From a virus (Duplodnaviria; Caudoviricetes): DNA of 37,163 bases. A program made the position numbers and the translations under genes. The stretch covers positions 1-37,163 of IMG/VR virus record IMGVR_UViG_3300043112_000020; one strand, 5' to 3'. This document shows positions 2,286 to 35,020 of this stretch, in pieces. Below the pieces are notes generated by a model, which was not told the DNA's origin, ran no database searches, and saw only the letters and a list, made by a program, of their open reading frames with translations. The number at the start of each line of letters is the position of its first letter. Within the stretch, counting starts at the first letter, position 1.

Positions 2286-5200
2286 CGGGTTACCGTCTGG
2301 TTATACTTGCGGTTAAACGCCATAGTCAGGCGCTGGATTTCTCGCTCGATACGTTCAATTCTATCCTTATACCGCTCCTTGTCCACGTTTTCCAGCTTTT
2401 CTTTACCTTGACGCAGCTTTGTAAGCCGCCGCCGCAGATGATCGGCGGTCCGTTTCAGGGCGATCTCGGGGTGTTCCTGCCGGTAGCGCATGGCATCCCC
2501 TTTGCGGCCAGTCTCCATCATTTCTTTGAACAGACCATAATGCGCCGTCACCTTGTCCATGTGATTGTGCAAGTTCTGTCGGTCGTAGTAATCACTCTTT
2601 TCCTGATAGACCTGGCGGGCAAACGGAACGCGCCTGATGGACAACTCTTCCCCTCTGGCCATAGCGGCCATGGCGTTGATGCTGTCGGCATAGAACCGAC
2701 CGGCACCTCCGGTTGCGAAATCCCAAAAGTGGTCCAACACTTCCGGCGATATGTCGACCACCCCAGGTTCAACACTGCTGCCACCCGTCAGTTCGTTAAG
2801 TTGTTTGGATATTGCCATGCTCAACGGCCGGACGCTCGACCAATACATCTCACTCTTCGGTTTCGGCGGGCCGAAAGACGGTTGATCCGGCATGATCGGG
2901 GTACCCATGAAATTCTCGTTAGTTGCCACCTGCACGAACGGATCCATGATGGTCGGTGAGATCAGTTGCAACAGCGAATCATCACCACCCAGCGGGTTAA
3001 AGGCGTTCATGCCGGCATGGAACAGGCTCACCGCACCTTGGGCCGGGCTCTTGCCATGCTTGCCGCCACTGGTCAGGTAGGCGCGAACGTCGCTCATGGT
3101 GTAACCCAAGGCTACGAACATATTGTACCCGTAGGGTAGTTTGACCTTGAAGGCGTCCCCCGATTCGTCACCGCGCATAAGCAACAAATTGGTGTGCTTG
3201 GTGTAATCGCTCACCTTGTCCCAGCGGTTTTCATCGTCGTCATCGTCGCCAGCCTGCAGCCGGTTTATTTCAGCCAGAGCAAAGGCGGTCAGAGTAATGC
3301 CTGCGCATATCTTCCTGGTGCGCTTGCTCTTGGCCAGGCTGGTGATAATCCGCGCCGATCCTTGAACGCCCGCATTGAAAAACAGATATAAAGCGTTGGC
3401 GGCCGGTCCGAGTTCCCCTTTGCGGTTGAAGTTGACGGTCAGGTTCTTGGCTAGGCTGGCGGCCTTGGCTTCACTCATGCCGTTCTCGATGGCGGTCTTA
3501 AAGGCCGACAGGCGCACCGCATTTTCCACCATGGTATTGTAATCGCCGATAAACTTGCCGACCTTCTGGACATATTTCCAGACCGTACCGAGCTTGCCGT
3601 CCTGCTCCCGTACCAGCTTCTGAATCTGTCTCTGCGTTTGATCGATGTTCTGCAGGTCCAGGTATCCCACCTGTCCGCCCGCTGCCTTGAACCGGGCGTA
3701 CCACTTGGCCATGTCAGAATCGTTCGATCCGCGCAGGGCGTTACGAATCCCGCGCATAGATGCAGGAATGCCCTTTGCCACCTTGGCTGCGATCTTGGCA
3801 CTTTCCTCCCCGGACAGGTTGATCATGGCCGTCTGAAAATCGCGCTCGAAGTTGGTGATGATGAATTCGGGATTCAGCGAGGTATTGACCATAGCCAGCA
3901 CTCTATTCAACCAAGCCAAAGCGCGAATAGATTTGCCCTGGTCGGCTGCTCCAAGGTTTTTCATCACGCGGGCCAGATCCCTGTTTTCGATCTGAATATA
4001 ATGCACCTGGCCGTCGCGGGTTATCGGCAACACATTGTCAGCACGGATCCACTCAAAGTCGTCCACTTCGGCCACCTGCCGCGGCGGGGTAGCTTCCATC
4101 TCTGTACGAATCTCGGCGATCTCCTGTTGCAGCCTTTCGATTTCCGCGCCGTCCTCGGCCTTTTCAAGAGCGGCCTGCCTGCGCTGCAGCTTCCCCTTTA
4201 AGGCGGTAAAGGCCGGATTCTTGGCCAGCACCTGACGGGTCGGCAGATTGTCCCTGGTGCGTACCGTCCATAGCGACGGATCGGGGTTTTCTTCCACCAT
4301 CTGCAAGAAAGCCTTACCGACCTTCGCCCGTTCGGCCCGCACGATGGTATCGGCCACCTGGGCGGCCAGATGCGCCAGAATGTTCTCGGCTTCGCTGCGG
4401 CGTCCAAGCGCGGCCCTGGTGCCGGACTTGGTGACCGCAAACCCGCGTCCGATGCTGCGGCCGTGGCCTTCGTCCAATCCATCCGGCGCACCTTTGAGCG
4501 GCACATAGAAGTTGAACTGTTCCCAAGCGTCCAGCCGTTCCTGCTCTTCCAATCCTTCCTCGCGAATAATACGGCGCTGCATTTCGGCCATGCTCCAGAC
4601 CTTTTGCGCCAAATTGTGCAGCACCCGCAATTTACCAGCCTTGCGGAACCCGTCGATAATCTTGGAAGCCTCGGCATCGGTCATGCCGGATCCACCTTCC
4701 TCGAATTCCGGATTGATCTTCTGAATGTAGGCATTGCGCTCCGGGACATGCCTGGCGTACAGATACTGTTCCAGTTCATCAAGAGAAACCGGCGCTGCTT
4801 TGATTTCTTCCATCAGCGGTTCGATCTGTTCGGCCTCGAACTTGTCCAGACGATCCTTGGCAATGCCGTGATACAGTTCCTCGGTCAGATACGGATTGTT
4901 GTCCTCGCGTTCTTGCCAGTCGCGTTTCTTCAACGCCTGCTGGGTGCGCTTGAGCGGCAGGAACTTGTCCTGGAACTTCATGCGCAGATAATCGAGGCGG
5001 GTGCCTATGGCCTCTTTGCCACGATCGATCCGGCTGGCTCGTGGAGTCTGTGCGGTTGCCGCGGCGGCGCGGGAGAACTTTATGGATTGTTCAGGTTTTT
5101 CGGACAACTCGCGTCTGCGGTTTTGGTATGCATCCTTTGCGGCTTCGATAAGTTCGGTATCGGATATGTCGTCTCGGACACCCTGCTGACCGTAGGAATC

Positions 5201-8200
5201 CACAACGTCACGCATGTTGGCGATCACACCTTCCTCCGTGACAAATCCGTTTGAAATAGGCTTCCCGGCTCGAAGGTCCAATAAAGATTTGTAAGCCCCT
5301 GCCAGTTGTTCTTCTATGCCGGCTTCATTGTCGACTGCATCTTGTTCAAAATCATAATCGTATTGAGATGCATAGTTGTCGAGCCATTCCCTTTCTTCGG
5401 CAAGCCGGGCGTCCAAATCTTCGGCCAATCCATAGTCACCAGATTCATAAGCAGCATCCGTTTTCTTTTCGAGCTCGGATACCTTGGCATACAGGGCCTC
5501 AATGGCAGACTTGGAATAGGAGATACGAACCTCAGAGCCACCTTGTTCCACGCCCTTCTCCACATATTTCCGGGCTTTGGCCACCAACGCCACAATATCG
5601 GCATCGGAGTATTTCATGTTGAAGCCCATCGAGCGCAACCAATCGCGGATCACGACAACGGCCCGTTTTAAAAAGCCGTTGGTTTCTCCACGCCCAGCGA
5701 TCTCGGCAAGCCACTCTTCGGCGGCCCCGCGTCGTCCACCTCTGGTGCGCAAGTCGTAGCCCCAGCGGGCGGCAATCGGCACCAAGTCTTTACGACGTAC
5801 ATTGCCAATCTGATCAAGAATGCTGTTGAAATCCTTGCCCAGCATGCCGCGCAGGCCGTAATGACCGACCACTTCATGCAACAGCACATGAGTGGCGCGG
5901 GCGGTACTCGGCAGGGCGTCGGCAATCAGGAAGATGGTTCCGGTCTTGGGATCAAACACCCCATCGATTCCGGCCCCTTCATGCGGGTCATTGGAAAAGA
6001 TATAGTTTTTCAGATGGTCCGGCAGGTCCTTTACGCTCTGCACCGCCTCGATGCGCGGGGCGTTCTTCCAGTTCTGCAGGATCGGGCCAATAGTCTGCAA
6101 GACCTGCTGTTTGGTGAGGCGTGCTTGCTGTTGCGGGGTTTTGCGGGAATAGACAGGATCGCTATCCGTTTCCGATGCCGCATCGGCCTCTGCCGAAAGC
6201 TCCTGTTCAACCTCTTCAAGGCGACGCTGCTTTTCTTCCAGTTCCTGCTCTTTCGGGAAAGGTTCATCCACCAGGCTTTCCAGTTTCGGAATCATCTCCC
6301 GCGCCTTATCGGCCTTTTCCTTAAGTTGCTGCACGATTGTAGGGAATTCCCTAATCCTGCGAGAGATTCCGGCAGACAGGCCGCGCACTGCCTCGGCCAG
6401 GTTCTTGCCGCCCCTTCCAAGTGCTCCTGAATAACCGGTATTTACCAGCCAGGTTTTCCCGTCTTTGGCCTCAGCGAAAATCTCAACGATCTGTTCGCTA
6501 CCGCCTATTCGGCCGCCTACAACTACCTGGGCCGACAGGTCAACCTCAAGCTCACCGAGCCGGACAGACCCGACTTGCGTTTCGTCCATTTCCGCCTGCG
6601 GATCCGCTTGATCAAGATTTGCCTCGATGGCGGCTTTGACCTTCTGCGTAATCGCTTTGTCCATAGCGGAACGACTGATGTAGGTATCGCCTTCAAACTT
6701 CGCCTCGAAGGCCATGCCATCGCCCAAAACTTTCTGCACGGCATCGTGCGCCTTGGTCCTCGCTGTGTACTTTTTGCCATCGACGTTGATGCTGAACTTC
6801 TCGCCGTTTTCTGCCGCAGCATCGGCAAGCCGGGTAATGTGCCCTTTGGCCTCGGCGGCTTGAGCATACCCAAAGTTTACGGATTCACCGTCGTAGGTAA
6901 TCGAGACTTTTCTGCTGTTGGCTTTTTCTTCGATCCCGGCCTGAGTCCCGGCGTGCTGGGCAAAAACCTCAACCGCATTCTCGTTTTCCAGCGCCCTCTG
7001 GTGATCGTCCAGTTCATCCCGCAGGCCATAGATGCGGCGACGGTGGGCGTTCTTCTGCCGGTTCAGCTTGTCGATCTCGGAGGTCAACTGTACCCGCTCA
7101 AGCTGCAGTGGTTCTCCGGAGGCAATCGCGGCGATTTCGGCCATACCGACGCTATCGGAGTCGTCAAACTCGATATTGAAATCCCCGGTGTAGTGACGCA
7201 GGCCGTTGATCATCTTGAGCTTGGTCGCGTTCAGGGACCAGAGTTTGGCATCCACAGTGCGGTTGGTGGTGTAGGCCAGGATTTCAACTTCGAATTTGTC
7301 GGCATACTTCTCAAACAGACTGTTGCCTTGGCGAATGATACGCCCTTCGCGCTGCTCAATATCCGACGGTTTCCACGTCACGTCCACATGATGCAGAGCA
7401 ACTAAACGCTCCTGCACGTTGGTCCCGGCCCCCATGCGCGGGGTGGACCCGAACAGCACCCGGACCTTACCGGCGTTTACTTCCTCGAACAGTAGCTTTT
7501 TCTGATCGTCGGTGGTGGCCTCCTGCACATAGCGAATTTCATTTTCCGGAATGCCGCTTTCGATCAGGCGTTTTTTGATCTCGTCGTAAGCGTTCCATCC
7601 TCCCTGCTGGGCAGCTTTCAACGAGGCCATTTCGTTTTGATCGTATTTCTCAAGCTGGTCACTGAGTTTCATGGCCTTGGCTTCGTCGCCAGCCTCTTCG
7701 GCCTGCTCCAACTGCCGCACCAAGCTATCGTACTTGGCAATTTTGGCCGCGTCACCCTTGGCTTTGGGCACACTGCGATCCAGGAAGACAAGCTGTGTCC
7801 CCTTGTCCTTCTGCCAGGCGTCGTAGACCCGCTTGACTTCCACGGCCACCTGCTCCAGTTTGCCGCCTTCGCCGTTGTCCTGGATATAGGGATCGACCGC
7901 CCGGGCATCGAGAGATACCTTGCGGGCGCGGTCCATCAGTCGTAGCCGTTCGGCGTTGCGCTGGTCCACGTCCTCTATGTCCGGAAGATGGTCGAACCCG
8001 GATACGATATCTTCGATGATGCGTTCCTGCACCTCCGACGGCTCGACGTTGACCGACCGACGTCCACCACTCTTGACCTTGGGAATAGGGAATTCGGCCC
8101 CGTCGTTGTCCTCTTTGTACCACTTCTTGATATCATCGTTGGAAACAGCGTCGGCGAAAGAATAGTACAGGTCCATCAAAGAGCGCATATTGGACCAGTC

Positions 8201-11200
8201 GCGGCCAATGCGGTTGACCTCCTTAAGCCCCCGACCGCTTTCCTTCGGCTCGAACGCTGTGCTCACGCTGGCAAACTGACTGCGCCAAGCGTCAAAATGT
8301 TCCAGCCCCATTTCCTCCAGAGCGTCAGCGGCCAGATAACGCATGATACCATACAGTTCCACGGCGCTGTTGGATACCGGGGTGCCGGTCATGAACGCCA
8401 CGCTGCCATTTTTGGACTCACGCAGTACCCGCACCTTCGACCACAGATCATACGCCTTGGCCGAACCGGCTTTCGGATTCATGCCGCGCACGTTGAGACG
8501 GGAATGGTAGAAGAGGTTTTTGAACTCGTGGGATTCGTCCACGGTCAGATCGTCAACCCCCATCTGCTCAAAGGTCAACAGGTTATCGCGCTTGGACGCC
8601 CGTTCTTTGACCTTCTCCAGCCGCGCCTCGATGTTGTCGCGCAGCCGTTCGGCCTCCTTAACCGTCAATGGCTTGCGGCGACCGCTGTAACCTTCAGCCT
8701 CAGCTTCGGCTTCGGCCTCTTCCACGGCCTGAATCGCCATGCTCAATTCTTCCTGTAGATAGCGTTCTTCGGTGGCTGGAGATATGCCTATAAACTGGAA
8801 AGAACTATGCGGTACGATGACCAAATCCCAATCGCCAGTAGCGATACGGGCGAACAAACGCTTACGTTTGTTCTTACTCAAATCCTTCACTCCGGCCGCC
8901 AACACCCTGGCCCCGGGATACAGGGTGTAAACATCCTTGGCCACCTGTTCGAGGATGTGGTTCGGAACCACCATCATTGGTTTTTTCGACAGGCCCATAC
9001 GCTTGCGCTCGATGGCGCGGGCAATCGCGGTAAAGGTCTTGCCGCTGCCAACGGTGTGATCGTACAGCACAAAACGGTCGACAATACCGCGCCAGATGCC
9101 ATTGACCTGATGCCGGCGCAGTTTGATGATATGGTCGGGCACCTTGCCAGGGAATCGTAGGTGCGAACCGTCGCGCTGCTTGGTCACTCGCACGTTGAAC
9201 ATGCGGTTGAACAGGTCCACCAACTCGCGGCGCCGTTCGGAATCACGAAACACCCAATCGGTGAACTCTTCCTTGATCGTTTCAGCCATGTCGTTGGCCG
9301 CTTGGGTCGCTTCGGTGTCAACAAAGGTACGAGTGCTACCGTGACCGTCGCTGACGGTGCGCGTCACCTTGATAGCCTGGCTATTTAGAACATTGCTCAA
9401 CAGGTCGACCACGTTCCGGCCCGGCGTGTTCCAACTTGCTGCACCGGACGTTGCGGCATTGCCCGTTACTGAAAAGGTATTGGTCAGGCGTGAGAATAGC
9501 ACCTTGGCCGGGGCTCCAGTCAGGTGTTCGACAAACGCAGCATACGTCTTTTCCGGAACCCAAGTCGCCCCAAGCGACACCGTTACTTTGTCAGCGGTCC
9601 ATGGTTCGGGCTGCACCTTTTCGAGGGCGGCAATGTTCTTGTCCATCTCGGCCTGCTTGGCCGCTTCAAGCTTGCGTACCACGTTGCCGCCGAGATATTC
9701 GTCCGCAGTTTCCCAGCGACCCGTCTCCGGGTCCTTGAAGATGACCGGGCTTTCCATACCGGTGTGCAATTCGTCAACCGCCCGCTGTTCGGTCTGTCCG
9801 GTCAAATCGGCGATCCGCTTCAAGTCGACCCCGCCCGTCTCAGACAACACCACGGCCAGGGCATCGGTGGCGCTGTCAGCACTGGTCGGTACTTCGTAGG
9901 GATAAACGATGCGTTTATCGAGAATATCGGCCGTTTTGACGATGGCTCCACGAGGCTTCAACCCCAAAGTTTTGGCGCGAGCCTTGGTGATCGGCGCTTT
10001 GTACTTGGCTTCGAGCGAACGGAGCAAAGCTCCATTCGGCAAGGCGTCCACGATGCGTAGCATCTTGCTCGAATTCATGTAATCGTGCTCTTTGACAAAC
10101 GCCTGATACTGTCGTTTGAGCTTCTTGCGGTTGGCCTCGATCTGTTTTCCTGCGGTGTTCTGCGTGTTCTCCAGGTTGATCTGTTCGATCAATGTATCGA
10201 GGATTTGCACGGCCCCCTTAAGCCGCGCATAGCCCAGCTTGCCAAGTTTCTTGGTGCCGGGAATATCGGCCTCATTGTCATATACCCGCTCTTCCTTCTG
10301 ATTGAGCTTGGTCGGTTTGCCGTTCGAACCGAGAACCTTGACCGGCTTGCCCTTTTTGTCGAGCTTGTCGACAACCTCGTACCACTTGCCATCTTCGTTC
10401 TGCTGCAAGCTGTTATGCCAAGGGGAGTCTTCGGTCAGGACCCGTTCGGCAAACAGTTCACCGCCGCCTGGGGCTTCTTTCTCATAAACTTGGATCAGTT
10501 CGCCGTTGACGTTGAACATGACATTGCCGATCTCGCCGCCGCGCAACGCAACCTCAATAGAGGTCTGCAAATCCTTGAATGCTTGGCGGGTTCGGTCCTG
10601 CGGGGTTTCTGCCGCAAGGATGTTCTTGGGCAGGCTTTGAATACGAGTGTCAAGTTCCTCGGACAAGGACGTCCCAGGCTCCAGATGCACGTTTACATCG
10701 TTGTGCATGTTCTGGCTGCCCGATCTATCCAAGGTGCCGATGATGTTCTGAGGATGTTTTTTGAAATACTCGTTGACGGTGATCGGATCGCCACCCAGCG
10801 GATCGGCAACTTCGTCGGTTCCCACCCACTGCACATCGTTACGGCTTTCAGGATCCGCGATTTTCTGCAAGACAATGATGTCGGTGACAACTTCGGTGCC
10901 AGCATTGGCCTTGAAAGCGGTATCGGGCAAACGGAAGGCGGCGACAAGATCGGCCTGGTCCGCAATTCTGGCGCGGGCCTCCTTACTCTTGGCGTCGAGG
11001 AAATAGCGCGACACGACGAACGCCTGCACACCGCCAGGCTTAAGCGACTCAAGACCGGCCAGCATGAACTGGTTGTGCATGGAGAACCGGTTGAAGTCGG
11101 GCGTGTATTTGAACCGCAAGCTGTTTTGGCTGAATGGCGGGTTGCCGATAACGAAATCGAAATAATCAGGGGGCAGCGGGATTTTTTCAAACCCGCTGTG

Positions 11201-14200
11201 AACGACGTTCGATTGCGGATAGAGAGCGGCCGCGATACCGGCTGTCAGCGGATCGTATTCGACACCAGTAAAGTGGGTACGCCCGGACAGTCCTTCCGGG
11301 ATCAGGCCAAGGAAATTACCCGTCCCCATGGCCGGTTCCAGCACGTTTCCACCGTTAAAACCAAGGCGTTGTGCAATTTTCCATAGGCCGTCCACCACGT
11401 CCTTGCTGGTGTAATGGGCGAACTGCGTGGAGTTACGCGCTACCTCCAATTCTTTTTCAGTCAGCAGTCCTTCAAGTTCTTCGACCTTGCTTTCCCAGCC
11501 TTTGGCCATGGACCCGTCGGGCCGACGGAAGGCATTGGCCAGCCCACCCCAGCCGACATAGCGGGCCAAGACTTGCTGTTCCTCTGCGGTGGCAAAGCGT
11601 CTTTCTTTCTGGAGGGTTTTGAGAATGCGGATTGCAGCCATGTTGTCGGCATACTTCGCCGTTTCGCCGCGTCCAAGCTCAAAATCGCCGGGGATGCGGT
11701 AATTGGTGGCAGGCGTTCCCTGGGGTTCTAAATCTCGTCGGCCTCGATCTTCTCGAGCAGATCGTCCTCCGGTTTGATCAGAATGTACTCGGGGAGAACC
11801 ACCTCTTCGGCTTCGTGGCGTTGATACCCGGCTGCCATCAGTTGATTGATCTGCTTGTGCGCTCTCTCGGCTGCTTTCAGCGTCAGCGGCAGAAGCTGTT
11901 TCGATTTCATCAGTGCCTTGTGTTGTTTCGGGCACCACTCGTGGAGATGGATTATCGCCCTTTCCTGCAGTTCCTTCACGGTCGTCCCGTACAGACTCCC
12001 CGCTTTCTGCTGCGCCTGTTTCCTCGATTCGATCATCGATATTATCCTTTCCGGCATGTACCTCGTCTGAGGATAGCATATCACCGTTTTTCACTTCATC
12101 AAGGAAGTGCATCAGGTAGGGTTTCACCTTAGCGCTGAAATTCTGCACAATGAAGCGCATGAAATCCTTGACGCCTTTGCCTGCTGCGCGGAACTCTTCC
12201 AGGGCTTTCTGAAAATGCGGCTTGGCTTTCGCGTAGGTATCCCGGTCCAAACCAGAAGGAAAGCTCGAGAGCGAATCGGCCCCACCGAACAGATCCACCA
12301 GCCCCTGCATGGCCTCACCCACACCCTTGACACCGTGCTTGGCCGCTTCGCCTGCAATCTTCTTCGCAGTCTGATTGTCCTGGACCTTCTGCTGTGCCTT
12401 CTGGGGGGTGGCCTTCTTCGTGGTGGTGCGTTTCTTCGCCGGCTTTTTGGGTGCGGCAGGCTCTTCCTCCTGCTCATTGGCCACCTCGTCAAACATGGTC
12501 GAAAGATCGTCCATATCCATGTCGGCCAGTTCAGAATCAAGAGCGGAAGTAGGCGCACTTCCCCCGTCAAACATATCTGTCTGCTTGGCATCGTCCTGCG
12601 CCTTGGCCATTTCATCTTCCATGGCGAGGGTAGACACATTTGTGCCTTCGGGTTTGGTCTTCTTGCCGAATGCCGGGGGAGAGGCAAAGAGTTTACCGTC
12701 TTCGCCTACTTGTCTGGCGGGGATTCCTTGGGAATTTTTTTCTTCGGCATTACGGGCATTGCGCTCAATGTCGGCGGCGTCGATTTCGGCGGCCAAACGC
12801 TCGGTTTCTTCTTTGGTTGGCTCTGCAAACGGATCTTCTTCTATCAACTCTTCCGTTTGGGCTGCAGGCGCTTCCAACAAATCCTTGAGCGTTTCACGCA
12901 CCTCGGCCTCGCGGGTTTTGGGGAACACCCATCCACGATGCTTGAGGTTCCACCAGCCTTTGAGCCCGTTTTTGTTCAGACGGTTTTTGTGGGGTTTGGT
13001 ATCGCCCTTGACGAGGAAGGCTTTGTCCGACAGGGGCGCGATATGGAGGGGAGCTAATCCAGAAGCGGCAGAGTCGCCAGATCCCGCTTGTACTTCCGCA
13101 CCACTTCCTTCTGATCCTGGCTCGGAAGACTCTTGAACGCTTCGCTTCCCTGCATCTGTGCCAGTCCCGTCTTGCTGATCTCCGGCACCGCCAGTGCCGG
13201 TTTGCCCTGCAGCGTCGTCAGGTGCGGAGTTTTGTCCCTTTTGACTACTAGATTCATCAACGTCCTCCTGTTTCTGAACAGTATCGCCGTCCTCAAGCTC
13301 TGTCAAGGAACGGAATTTCATTTTATCCTTGGCGATACCTTCAGGCACACCAAGCCACAACCGGTCCAGATACCCGGCATCATCGGCATTCTGCAAATAG
13401 ACGGTATCCGGCAGATCGGCAGGATCCAGTTCAGCAATCTCAACATCCCCGCCCTTGGCTCCTTTATGCTCCGCAATGCGCTGAACGTCGTCCATTTCCG
13501 TGGTGAACCACAAAGCACGGACATCGGCCCCATTTTGGGCCTTGTGCGGATTATTCGGGTTGGCCTCCAAGTTATCGGCGTGACGGTCCTTGTCGACCGT
13601 GAACATGGCACGGTACAACTTCTTCCCCTTGCCAATGGCATCCAAGGCATGCTGCTTGCCGGCGCGATAGATGGTGCGCTTGTCGGTATTCGGTGAAACC
13701 TGCTCGTTGGTCAGGTGCTGGACGGACGGCAGATCAGGTGCATTTTCTTGATTGGCAAAGCCCGCCACAGGCCCTTCCTGAGACGAGCTCGTAACGGTTT
13801 CTACACTTGGCAGATCCGCGGCTCCCTCTTCCCGTTCTTCAATCGCTTCCTCGGCTGGGCGCACTTCCACCGTGCCATCTTCTCCGGCCACGGTTTTCGC
13901 GGCGTCCAGCACCTCCTGGCTGCCGTCGGTCACCACATCCTGGATCACCGTGCCGTCCTTGTCGCGGGAGGTTACGACGGTCTGCGAATCGGTCGGCTTG
14001 CTATCGATGCCGTATCCCAATGCGCTGCCGAGTTTACCGGAACGAGCCAGGTTCAATGTTCCATCCTGCGAAAAGATCAGTGTACCTTCGGGGATCTGCG
14101 CCGTCTTGAAACCGTCCGGAACCTCGGGCATGGATTCCCCGGGCGTAACCAGTACGGCCGGTTTCCGTCCATCGACCAGTGCCCGCATCTGAGCTTCCAT

Positions 14201-24988: not shown

Positions 24989-25405
24989 CTACAACACCTC
25001 GCAATTTGGCATGTCCCATTGCTTGGCCATGTGCTCGATAATCGGAATAATCTCTTCATCGCCTTCGGCCTTAGCCCTAGCGATACACTCGGCCGCCGAG
25101 GTCGGAATAACATGATAGGAAACGGAACAGCCGATTTTCCCGGACTCGTCAATCCATTCCTGCCGTCGCTTTGCCGTGGTGTTTGTGGCGTCCACTATGA
25201 TCTTGTCATGACCGGCAAGGAACAAAGACCGAACCATATACTTGGCCGTGGTCCACACCATCGGTTCAGCATCGTGGATAAAACGCTGGCCATGAATGGC
25301 CAAACGGATACTGTCAGGATTGACAATCGGGATCTCCTGCTGTTTCGCCCATGTGGTTTTTCCGGATCGTGGAAGTCCCACGGTCAAGATCAGTTCTTTC
25401 GGCAT
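24989..25405 (-). CDS. AAA_33 / polynucleotide-kinase-like P-loop kinase
   Basis: VGLPRSGKTT, DSIR, IIVDATN, CIAR lid. Confidence 0.85.
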   Translation of the reverse strand: MPKELILTVGLPRSGKTTWAKQQEIPIVNPDSIRLAIHGQRFIHDAEPMVWTTAKYMVRSLFLAGHDKIIVDATNTTAKRRQEWIDESGKIGCSVSYHVIPTSAAECIARAKAEGDEEIIPIIEHMAKQWDMPNCEVL

Positions 25406-25721
25406 GTTCCCTCTCTCTCAACATCAGTTCCAAAACCGCCAGATTTCCCCAGGCCCGATGGGCCGCATGCAGCAACCCGCTTTCCTCGTCCGTCACCTTC
25501 CCTGCAGCGTCGGCCAGATCGTGCCGCAAGCGGGCATCGTCATAACGCCCCTTGGCATCCTCGATGCTATCCCAGGTATCCCAGCCGTGGTTCGAGGCGC
25601 CGTGTTCATTGACGCGGGCAATCTCCTCGATGGCGCGAGGGAAATAACGCAACACCGAATGGATATACGGCTTGCCAGCGTCGTACTTGGCACCGGCCCC
25701 GCGGCGGTCATTCTTTGCCAT
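25314..25721 (-). CDS. dATP/dGTP diphosphohydrolase-domain protein (DUF5664-like), 135 aa
   Basis: KYDAGK..P.A..IARV..GA..W..RY.DA.LRH..DEESGLLHAAH..W..L; start reassigned to MAKND at 25721. Confidence 0.8.
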   Translation of the reverse strand: MAKNDRRGAGAKYDAGKPYIHSVLRYFPRAIEEIARVNEHGASNHGWDTWDSIEDAKGRYDDARLRHDLADAAGKVTDEESGLLHAAHRAWGNLAVLELMLREREHAERTDLDRGTSTIRKNHMGETAGDPDCQS

Positions 25722-25854
25722 GGTGTTTTCCCTTGGCCTTGTGCCGGGTATAGATAATACCGCGTTGCCCGTTCCCGAGGCGTTCACAGACCTCGCAGGG
25801 CGTTTTGTCCAGTGGCTGCCCCTCGTATGCACAGGTGCTGCAGTTGATGGCCAT
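25708..25854 (-). CDS. 48-aa Zn-binding peptide MAINCSTCAYEGQPLDKTPCEVCERLG...
   Basis: Manual translation; CxxC..PCxxC; fills the intergenic gap. Confidence 0.6.
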   Translation of the reverse strand: MAINCSTCAYEGQPLDKTPCEVCERLGNGQRGIIYTRHKAKGKHHGKE

Positions 25855-31938: not shown

Positions 31939-32189
31939 TAGCTATCCCTCCGCGTAAAATGCCGCCACAGGCGAACATACCAGGGCGCGACGGGCTTCTT
32001 GCAGGCCACCTTGCCCTCGCACTTGAGAACAATACGATCCCGAGAAACGATCTTTTGTACCCGCCACAAAGCGCCGTTGACCTCCCACACTTCCCCGCGC
32101 ACTACCGGAGCAGCGTCGAGTTTGCGGTGTCCCAGCAGCATTTCACGCTGCTTGGCGTCCAGGGGATTCGTGCAGCCCTTGCTTTTCAT
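31938..32189 (-). CDS. Hypothetical protein, 83 aa
   Basis: ATGA/TAATG coupling to both neighbours. Confidence 0.65.
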   Translation of the reverse strand: MKSKGCTNPLDAKQREMLLGHRKLDAAPVVRGEVWEVNGALWRVQKIVSRDRIVLKCEGKVACKKPVAPWYVRLWRHFTRRDS

Positions 32190-32812
32190 GCCAGTGCCCC
32201 CAGGTCGTTGCCGTCCTTATGCGGAAAATCGCGGTGATCGACCGTCGAACCGTTAACCATGATCCGGCTGCCAAGCTCGATACGGGCCGACAGCAGCATC
32301 TTGTCACCGCGTTTGACACCGATATAGGGCGGGTTCTGGTTGTTCAGCACGACGCGCAGGGGATCAGCAGCGGCCACAACCGCACCAGGCTCCAGGTTCT
32401 CCAACTCGGCCGGGTCAATATCAACGCTGGCAACAACTTCGACTTTGCCGAAATCCTCATACCCTTCGACCAGCGGCGCCAGGGCATGCACGGTATTACG
32501 GAACAACACGTCTTTGGCCTGTTGCTCTTTGGGCAACTGATCGAACGGAACCATGCAGGGGTGGGTCTTGGCCGTACCGTCCTTCTCTTCGCCGAATACC
32601 CAGCCGTCAGCCTCTTTCTGTGCCATCCAGCTTTCATGGCTGGCCTGCGGTCCTGCGTTAGGGTTGTCCAGATGGAACTGAACTCCCGCAATAGCGCTTT
32701 CCTTCTGCCACTTCGGAGCGTAATGCCAGCTTTTCTGGCTGTCGTCGCCCAGGGCTTGGCAGTATTCGCGGTTGGCTTCGTGGCAAATTTCGGCGATCTG
32801 TTCAACGGTCAT
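32186..32812 (-). CDS. RyR-domain protein
   Basis: IAEICHEANR.YC, SHESWM.QK..DGW.FG..KD...KTHPCMVPFDQLP.EQQ.KD. Confidence 0.85.
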   Translation of the reverse strand: MTVEQIAEICHEANREYCQALGDDSQKSWHYAPKWQKESAIAGVQFHLDNPNAGPQASHESWMAQKEADGWVFGEEKDGTAKTHPCMVPFDQLPKEQQAKDVLFRNTVHALAPLVEGYEDFGKVEVVASVDIDPAELENLEPGAVVAAADPLRVVLNNQNPPYIGVKRGDKMLLSARIELGSRIMVNGSTVDHRDFPHKDGNDLGALA

Positions 32813-33096: not shown

Positions 33097-33498
33097 TTAC
33101 TCGTTACACGCAATCGCGGCATTGGCCCACATGACCGCTTGCCGCACATTCAAAAGCGCCTCAGTCCGTTCAATTCCGGGCGGGCAGAACTCTTCAATGA
33201 GTGTGGCCAGTTCCTTCCCGGCTTCGCGGATCTTCTGGTAGCGCTCCACCTGGTCGCCCTTGGGGGGATGATGGGTAAACAGATTATTGAGTGCGTCGTC
33301 TCGCTTCTGTTCCCGTCTCTCTTTGGCTTTTTTCATGTGCTTATGGTGCAGCATTTCTGCAAGACCGTTATAATCGCTTGCAGTCGCTCCGAAACCACAC
33401 AGACTGCAATGGGCAGACGCTCCACCGTGCCCATATTCGGGTTCTACAACCTCAAGCAACCCTCCGCACTCAGGACAACCAAGGATCTTTTCAATCAT
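33097..33498 (-). CDS. Zn ribbon fused to an Acb2/Tad1-like helical hairpin, 133 aa
   Basis: Start reassigned to MIEKILGCPECGG (GGAGAGG SD); CPEC..CSLC, then FTHHPP..Q..RY.KIR...KELA..I...CP...ER..A......AVMWANAAIA. Confidence 0.75.
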   Translation of the reverse strand: MIEKILGCPECGGLLEVVEPEYGHGGASAHCSLCGFGATASDYNGLAEMLHHKHMKKAKERREQKRDDALNNLFTHHPPKGDQVERYQKIREAGKELATLIEEFCPPGIERTEALLNVRQAVMWANAAIACNE

Positions 33499-33511
33499 GG
33501 CTTCCTCTCCT

Positions 33512-35020
33512 TTACGCTGTCTTCCAGCTTCCCTTCTTACGCCTGCGGCTTCCTTTGGTGGCCGGCACATACCGATACCCGCGGGCCAGTGTTTCCAGTG
33601 CGTCATAACCGTGCATCGCCCAATCGTGCCGCGGGCGGTTCTTCCAGCATCCGTTGTGGTCGTCCCATTCGCGCCGGAAGTTGTCCAGACACTTGATCCC
33701 TTCGCTGCAGGACTCTTCATCGAACCAGCATGTTGGCAGGAATTGCCGCGTCTCCTGGATCGCCGTGTACTTATCGTCAATCCTGGGGACCACGACGATG
33801 TTTTGCATATTGGCGTCGGACAGGATCTGTTCAATGGTGCGCGGTTTTTCGTCGGCGCTCTTGGTGGATCCCATACGGCGCTGGCCGGCATCGTGCGGCA
33901 GAAAGTGTTGCCCCCAGATGTAACCGAGCCTTTGCATCTCCCGCCAGTAGTACAAAACGTCATCGTCGGATCCGGTCATATAGCCGATGATCCGGTTTTC
34001 CAGTCCCACCCGCTGATGGAACCAGATGCACATAAGGTCGTTGAGGCCGAAGTCCCAGGCGCTGTTAACCGGTATGCCAGGCTCATGCGGCACCGTGGTA
34101 ATGCGTACATCCTTACGAAGCTTGGCCATCTGCTTGGCCAGATAGGCCCCCTCGATGGCGGCGGCAAATGCTTCTTCGGGATAGCTGGGATGTTCTCGGG
34201 TCATATCGTCCTGCAACGTCTTGAGCTTCTCGGCGTACCAGGCTTTCTGAAACGGATCGAGCTGGACACCGGTAATCGCCTCGATCTCGGCAAAATACTT
34301 GGCCAGTTCCTTGGTAATGACCACGCCTTTCGGATTCAGCCGCTTACGAGGATCTTCCCACCAAGCGAAGAAATGCAGCTTGTACTGCAGCTTATTCGGC
34401 TTTTGCCCTGCCTGCTGCCGTTTCAAGGCCTCCATGCAGTAATCGTAAAAGTAGCCGTCGTTGCCTTCAGCGGTGCTTTCGATAAAGATCATGTTGCCGG
34501 GGTGGACTGTTTCCAGGGTGCCGGTGACAATCTCCCGGGCCTTCTCGGGGAATTTGGCGCACAGCTTGCCGAACTCGGAGATATGCACCATCTGATAGGT
34601 GCCTGAACGCAAACTTGTCCCGACCTCGATCATGGACCCGTTCCCAAACTTGAGCTTCTTCGCGCTTTCGGTATCGGCCGGACGTGCGTTTTTCAACCCA
34701 TCAGGAAGCTCGTCGTAGGGGAATTGCACCTTCTTTTCGTGGATCTTCTCCACGTCTTCCCGGGTATGGGCGTTGATACCCACCGAGTAATGATCCCGAA
34801 ACAGCGCCTGATCCAAACCGAAAATCCCCAAAAAGGTGGTGAAACCCAACTGGCGGGCCTTAAGGATCAGGTTGAGGTACCACAGGTTTTCAATGAGCGT
34901 GGTTTGCGCTGCGTTCGGCCTGAACGGGGTCTTTTTGCCGTCCTCGTTCACGCAGTAATACAGGTTGTGCAGTCTCCACATTGGAGAGCTGAAATTTTCA
35001 ATCAACTCAACGCGATTCAT
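33512..35020 (-). CDS. terL: Terminase large subunit
   Basis: ILKARQLGFTT, HISEFG, IESTAEG, WDFG.ND, FLPHDA, PRHDWAMHGYDA. Confidence 0.95.
   Translation of the reverse strand: MNRVELIENFSSPMWRLHNLYYCVNEDGKKTPFRPNAAQTTLIENLWYLNLILKARQLGFTTFLGIFGLDQALFRDHYSVGINAHTREDVEKIHEKKVQFPYDELPDGLKNARPADTESAKKLKFGNGSMIEVGTSLRSGTYQMVHISEFGKLCAKFPEKAREIVTGTLETVHPGNMIFIESTAEGNDGYFYDYCMEALKRQQAGQKPNKLQYKLHFFAWWEDPRKRLNPKGVVITKELAKYFAEIEAITGVQLDPFQKAWYAEKLKTLQDDMTREHPSYPEEAFAAAIEGAYLAKQMAKLRKDVRITTVPHEPGIPVNSAWDFGLNDLMCIWFHQRVGLENRIIGYMTGSDDDVLYYWREMQRLGYIWGQHFLPHDAGQRRMGSTKSADEKPRTIEQILSDANMQNIVVVPRIDDKYTAIQETRQFLPTCWFDEESCSEGIKCLDNFRREWDDHNGCWKNRPRHDWAMHGYDALETLARGYRYVPATKGSRRRKKGSWKTA

Follow-up and report, generated by a model that had tools for sequence, protein, structure and literature searches.

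The window analysed here is a stretch of 37,163 nucleotides (nt), covering positions 1 to 37,163 of the IMG/VR virus record IMGVR_UViG_3300043112_000020 (Duplodnaviria; Caudoviricetes), and it represents the virion module of a podovirus-type phage with terminase, P22-like portal, capsid, tail fibres and amidase. At the end of this module lies a giant gene for a DarB-like polyvalent protein. An original prediction, made from the sequence alone, had proposed that a small gene is overprinted in the +1 frame of this giant gene and that its product is a partner, chaperone or regulator of the enzyme. Comparison with related loci indicates that this small gene is real, codes for a conserved protein and occupies the +1 frame of the linker that precedes the methylase (Table 1). 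The giant gene matches phrog_10089 (DarB-like antirestriction, E 0) and has an LPD38 match of 2e-40. Its single chain combines the LPD36 motif GXG[GAS] (here GWGG), the methylase motif NPP(Y/F) (here NPPF) and an SNF2-type helicase (GSGKT, DESH), as in the definition of DarB-like methylase-helicases in section 14 of PMC5512222, and the catalytic motifs look intact.

Table 1. Features of the giant gene and of the small gene nested in it (positions refer to the window).
Feature	Position	Strand	Remark
Nested gene, predicted helical TnpV/DUF1896-like protein	11728..12036	-	+1 frame of giant; 102 amino acids (aa) + stop
AAGGA Shine-Dalgarno-like site	12045..12049	-	8 nt 5' of nested ATG at 12036
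DarB-like polyvalent protein (N6-methylase, SF2/SNF2 helicase, LPD38), 4,544 aa	2282..15916	-	end of virion module
Giant-frame linker over nested gene, stop-free, G/R/S/D/E/A/P-rich, almost without aromatics	11727..12037	-	composition
LPD36 (GWGG motif) and N6-adenine methylase (motif I EPAMGTGNF, motif IV NPPF), intact	10832..11707	-	domain search and motifs
SF2/SNF2 helicase core; GSGKT, DESH and QREGR motifs present	7325..9079	-	domain search and motifs
LPD38 domain, C-terminus of giant	2621..3232	-	domain search

The small open reading frame (ORF) and its Shine-Dalgarno (SD) site lie exactly in the predicted position and frame, the giant-frame translation over it reads as the R/S/E/G-rich linker that had been described, and its stop codon is separated by 21 nt from the T of TNYRI, where the methylase module begins. 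The layout is that of an embedded gene: its whole coding sequence falls within that of a second gene, is read from the same strand but in a different frame, and has its own start and ribosome binding site. The nested frame stays open further upstream (GTG at 12084, ATG at 12057), where neither start has a comparable SD site, and the starts of close homologues, as called by a gene caller, coincide with position 12036. SD-like 4-mers precede 67/70 family starts, which were chosen for the best SD, compared with 106/2,015 control +1 ATGs. No sigma-70 promoter-like site was seen in 11600-12500, and none of the sequencing runs listed provided RNA data containing the locus. The length of the ORF is not significant by itself, as the giant gene holds 10 +1-frame ATG ORFs of at least 70 aa, nine of which are unrelated, shadow-type ORFs. 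What goes beyond chance, judging from the relatives, is conservation, namely the existence of homologues and the same position and frame.

Homologues of the nested protein comprise 8 close and 94 remote sequences at E<=1e-3. Among annotated phages, tblastn, a check that the original prediction had proposed, found 17 weakly matching records; in 16 the match coincides with a DarB-like giant or lies on the strand opposite to one, and in the remaining record it falls in a DNA polymerase gene. In each of the seven records retrieved, the match is a +1 ORF that precedes the methylase and starts at an ATG of its own, and none of the seven (0/7) is annotated accordingly. We then turned to 160 loci selected by the methylase alone (the best 80 of at least 464 viral and the best 80 of at least 474 genomic matches). 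The family profile matches 84/160 of these loci and 60/121 after removal of near-copies, and all 84 homologues lie on the same strand, in the +1 frame and just upstream of the methylase. Within an open methylase frame are 83 of the 84; the exception (L173) is a separate gene overlapping the enzyme start (ATGA). In a homology-free test, 82/98 non-redundant giants (5 of which had been chosen via the small protein) contained a +1 ORF that begins with ATG, spans 70 aa or more and stops at -155 to +45 nt of the methylase, whereas 11 of 12 control windows gave 4-15 of 73-98 and the +2 frame 0/98. The twelfth control window, at +4200 nt, contained a +1 ORF in 28/87 giants; this excess is an R/S-rich shadow of helicase motif VI.

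The nested ORFs form three divergent sequence clusters, which together span 79/83 methylase-selected non-redundant giants and are joined by profile comparison with probabilities of 75% and 87%. The position of their stop varies between an overlap with the start of the methylase and a distance of 600 nt ahead of it. In ten loci (L007, L025, L027, L029, L032, L034, L041, L043, L048, L101) the giant frame contains an extra domain of ~170 aa between nested gene and methylase, and the nested stop lies 516-600 nt ahead of the latter. Bacteroides, Helicobacter and cyanophage giants have a +1 ORF at the same place without detectable similarity to the family (L017 7669-7932, L019 7468-7872, L016 7561-7950), and these may represent further nested families. 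Four other loci (L181 1-255, L183, L184, L207) are remnants in which the giant frame is interrupted or missing but the small gene survives; L183 and L184 are located upstream of an ABC-type binding-protein gene.

Short-leader plasmid versions of the enzyme from Campylobacter, Pseudomonas, Enterococcus and Rhodococcus also nest the small gene, so that nesting does not simply follow from the gigantism of phage genes. In the annotated phage records examined, the small gene is nowhere given as a nested gene; two plasmid records annotate it as a separate gene. In a quick, provisional methylase tree (74 rows), nested forms appear throughout the family in scattered fashion, and some nested clades include losses. 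Three of its rows, either marked 'none' or inspected over no more than 1.2-1.5 kb upstream (L186 and L187), proved to be nested further upstream. This topology is compatible both with the nesting of free genes and with the release of nested ones. The short leaders of plasmid enzymes (L114, L115, L118, L135, L155, L163, L190) often begin with a QLxLF/QFDLF-like motif, also present near residue ~1117 of the window giant, which we take to resemble a sliding-clamp-binding motif. A regular-expression count for such motifs upstream of the methylase (8 vs 3 of 121) showed no clear enrichment.

Further evidence for the nested gene comes from the pattern of divergence. Between the window and locus L181, divergence at nested codon positions 1/2/3 is 0.10/0.05/0.35, and protein identity amounts to 86% in the nested frame but 57% in the giant frame. 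Locus L021 gives 0.33/0.18/0.53 for the nested gene and 0.19/0.12/0.64 for the methylase in its own frame. Nested third positions diverge more than second positions in 270/270 pairs at >=55% identity. Among related contigs, 5/5 listed differences inside the ORF fall on nested third positions and 28/34 listed methylase differences on giant third positions (counted by hand among the differences listed, beyond which there are 255 more). A further contig (run X6), with 106 differences over 11204-12438, is identical across the 333 nt of nested gene and SD site (11728-12060), which reflects either dual constraint or recent recombination.

The giant frame leaves its own trace in the choice of synonymous T at nested third positions. 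Such a T occurs in 0/1,236 cases in which the giant frame would gain a stop, in 52/1,287 (4%) in which it would gain F/L/W/Y/C, and in 262/1,237 in which it receives Ser, while the control gives 19-23% in all classes; the window alone shows the same order (0/22, 0/18 and 8/21). Random synonymous recoding of the window's nested gene left the giant frame open in 0/300 draws, and across loci 4.2/65 giant frames would be expected to be open by chance. The avoidance of T at would-be stops and at F/L/W/Y/C codons implies that the giant frame is read through and held to a hydrophilic linker, in agreement with its composition (G 18%, R 12%, aromatics <0.5%, Met 0.1%). Judged by these codon patterns, purifying selection acts on both frames, as the original prediction had suggested could be checked, and the claim of a nested gene is strongly supported by the locus survey, the homology-free count, the codon-position divergence and the avoidance of T alike. 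The term 'overprinted' should be turned the other way: fold and most of the constraint belong to the small gene, over which the giant frame runs as a low-complexity passenger.

What kind of protein is encoded? The AlphaFold2 model is compact and all-helical with a pLDDT (predicted local distance difference test) of 87, which agrees with the earlier impression of a folded, helical sequence. The window protein has no Pfam or PHROG match, and the proposed profile search with TnpV (PF14198, Pfam cut-off 27 bits) found nothing in it at E<=0.1. The suggested resemblance to TnpV holds as a remote link through relatives: PF14198 matches 16/81 homologues (best 3e-8) and 18/99 nested ORFs, three of them over the cut-off, including two of the window's own cluster (L085 and L161). 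Canonical TnpV genes are nested in the +1 frame of two Firmicutes-type giants (133 and 109 bits), and another is nested in an Enterococcus plasmid enzyme gene (50 bits). The nested protein is therefore best described, on the support of these profile matches, as a remote TnpV relative and not as a Pfam member. TnpV, known from Tn4451/Tn4453-type elements, resembles it in size, helical pattern and the sequence bridge, and its full-score genes are likewise nested in methylase-helicase genes (L186, L187, L191). In contrast, the window gene lies in a phage virion operon inside a DarB-like gene and not beside a large serine recombinase, and the published Xis-like role of TnpV does not fit it.

Among solved structures, the best match is 2apl (PG0816; VIA Z 7.5, root mean square deviation 2.4, 68 residues; next 3.6), a relative of DUF1896 (PF08989, E 5e-28). 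Foldseek gave a probability of 0.87 against 2apl but an E value of 1.6, and the window protein does not reach the DUF1896 Pfam cut-off. By eye, a G-aromatic-xxx-EAE helix motif is common to both. DUF1896 may resemble the nested protein in predicted fold and shares with it this helix motif and the place directly upstream of an N6-methylase-helicase gene, but it is free-standing, ~150 aa long, variable in frame relative to the enzyme and without a significant profile match. A PDB sequence search with the small protein returned designed helical repeats only. The 'endolysin' label of phrog_938, which matches 72/81 homologues, was rejected, as a helical protein of ~100 aa inside a DarB gene fits no lysin.

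With regard to function, the host giant belongs to the same family as P1 DarB and the polyvalent methylase-helicase dyad (PMC5512222), sharing LPD36, the NPPF methylase, the SNF2-type helicase and LPD38. DarB-like enzymes are thought to be delivered with DNA and to methylate that DNA (PMC5512222). Passages of PMC9144972 describe Bcep22-like giants as virion proteins and place the JC1 giant (gp69) in the virion; parts of PMC12810830 and PMC9024508 indicate that P1 DarB relies on accessory Dar proteins including Ulx. Virion packaging and protection from type I restriction are features of P1 DarB, with packaging also of JC1 gp69. The small gene appears to track the enzyme and not the capsid, since the link holds in virion-borne and plasmid versions. 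Moreover, DUF1896 genes are located directly upstream of a methylase-helicase gene in 4/4 genomes with a match (201 searched). We consider it about an even call that the nested product is a partner that restrains or chaperones the methylase-helicase before transfer. Ribosomes would start at the nested SD site on the mRNA of the giant, so that both proteins would be made together; the small, usually acidic protein (isoelectric point, pI, <6 in 66/75 family members) might, by binding to the enzyme module, maintain its folding or hold it inactive until the enzyme enters the head or is handed over to the conjugation channel. Methylation would thereby act on DNA arriving in the new cell. A complex prediction that paired the small protein with residues 1404-2253 of the giant, covering LPD36, the methylase and the middle region, scored 0.01, which speaks neither for nor against binding.

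Several observations weigh against such a partner. The proposal of a partner, chaperone or regulator is drawn from gene context. The fold score of 7.5 against 2apl lies below the tool's caution line for helical proteins, and hhalign of A4 against DUF1896 (4 sequences) gave a probability of 0.5%, so that the link to DUF1896 is not supported by sequence. The window protein is near neutral (pI 6.5). P1 DarB and the ~1,730-aa alphaproteobacterial plasmid forms have the enzyme without a nested gene; P1 instead has the separate gene ulx, whose product showed no match to the family profile. In a second phylum sample, 2/6 matches had no methylase within the ~1.5 kb inspected. TnpV also occurs away from the enzyme, as in W03, where a free-standing copy lies behind a serine recombinase ~30 kb from the SNF2 gene, and in mobilisable elements of C. 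difficile (in the relevant part of PMC3158075). A further free-standing TnpV (L211 1462-1842, 152 bits) has a serine recombinase on one side and, on the other, a gene resembling those for tetracycline resistance by ribosomal protection; the alternate frame of this TnpV is full of stops.

Alternatively, a real gene could encode an independent anti-defence or early-acting effector, which would be expressed and transferred together with the giant but would not bind to it. Anti-restriction and anti-CRISPR factors are commonly small acidic proteins, which fits this possibility. So does the occurrence of TnpV and A4-family genes away from the enzyme (for TnpV, same part of PMC3158075) and of DUF1896 in 98 proteins around AcrIIA9 homologues (excerpts of PMC6739104). 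We nevertheless regard it as unlikely, because at least three divergent families (79/83 giants) keep the small gene at a fixed place directly before the methylase and because the two-frame code is costly, both of which exceed what loose clustering would need.

It is improbable that a +1 frameshift adds the small domain as a C-terminal cap to the N-terminal part of the giant, or that the small gene couples translation to an internal restart of the methylase-helicase. The PBC5 record (L006, 2809-9351) points in this direction, in that gp22 is an in-frame fusion of the N-terminal part with the small domain and the giant is split in this record, and the UniProt model of this fusion is the best viral fold match; free-standing versions, moreover, overlap the enzyme start codon (L173 ATGA; DUF1896). 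However, the PBC5 fusion is probably a record-specific frameshift, since its relatives L025, L027, L032, L034 and L101 have a continuous giant frame. In several loci a stop closes the +1 frame only 1-2 codons upstream of the ATG, the SD sites are conserved, the nested stop varies from overlap to 600 nt, and Met is nearly absent from the giant-frame linker.

A role as an Xis-like recombination or DNA-binding factor, as postulated for Tn4451 TnpV, also appears improbable. Xis has a basic winged-helix DNA-binding fold, whereas the predicted fold here is all-helical, the family is mostly acidic and the gene lies in a late virion operon. No Xis was among the fold matches listed, which is no argument against such a role. 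The excision role of TnpV was postulated from homology to lambda Xis, according to the passages of PMC3158075 consulted, and free TnpV genes do lie behind serine recombinases. Finally, that the ORF is a mere shadow of linker codon bias is hardly credible: although long +1 ORFs are common in the giant and the helicase motif VI shadow yields many elsewhere, the codon phase and the higher protein identity follow the nested frame, the free-standing homologues L173 and L211 have stops in the other frame, the predicted fold is confident, and the codon-position divergence and synonymous-T avoidance already contradict it.

Returning to a partner of the enzyme, a broader proposal would be that TnpV, DUF1896 and the nested phage ORFs form one old superfamily of off-switches or secretion chaperones for injected methylase-translocases. 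An inhibitor gene inside its target could not be lost, and its product would stay in the donor and license the enzyme only on newly entered DNA. We put this forward as a tentative and rather doubtful extension.

Embedded genes are a known kind. For instance, comS in srfAB is an embedded gene of the same sort. In Rz1/Rz, one complete functional gene likewise sits within the other, read from the same strand but in a different frame (embedded class, as treated in part of PMC9144972), and both pairs share one frame reduced to low-complexity sequence. The present case differs in comprising ~100 codons, in its conservation across several phyla, among phages and plasmids as well as conjugative elements, and in the free-standing forms of the small gene that are still extant. 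The pairing of a TnpV-like gene with a DarB-like giant was not found in the literature searched, nor was any description of this nesting, with subscription papers and supplements outside the search. The terms 'TnpV', 'DUF1896' and 'overlapping' are absent from the main text of the polyvalent-protein paper (PMC5512222), and the passages on P1 DarB and polyvalent proteins consulted do not mention a nested gene.

To our knowledge, bacteria and phages rarely have long genes that are fully nested on the same strand and show selection on both frames, and here such a layout is widespread across phages, plasmids and conjugative elements. It would explain the odd G/R/S/D/E linker of DarB-like giants, whose 'low-complexity' sequence would be the small gene read one base off, and for TnpV and DUF1896, both orphan families, it suggests a role that can be tested, beside the most common enzyme pair of polyvalent proteins. 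It also suggests that virion proteomics of Bcep22-like DarB may miss a second protein and that DarB knockouts may silently remove it.

Elsewhere in the window, a 288-aa ORF (33097-33963, minus strand) has a C-terminal Acb2/Tad1 hairpin domain (PF24729, 1e-15), and its product is likely an anti-CBASS/Thoeris sponge fused to an N-terminal region. The packaging and head region further contains a dATP/dGTP diphosphohydrolase-like gene, an AAA_33 kinase and an RyR-domain protein (25314-25832, 24989-25405 and 32186-32812, all on the minus strand), which are possibly nucleotide-modification genes.
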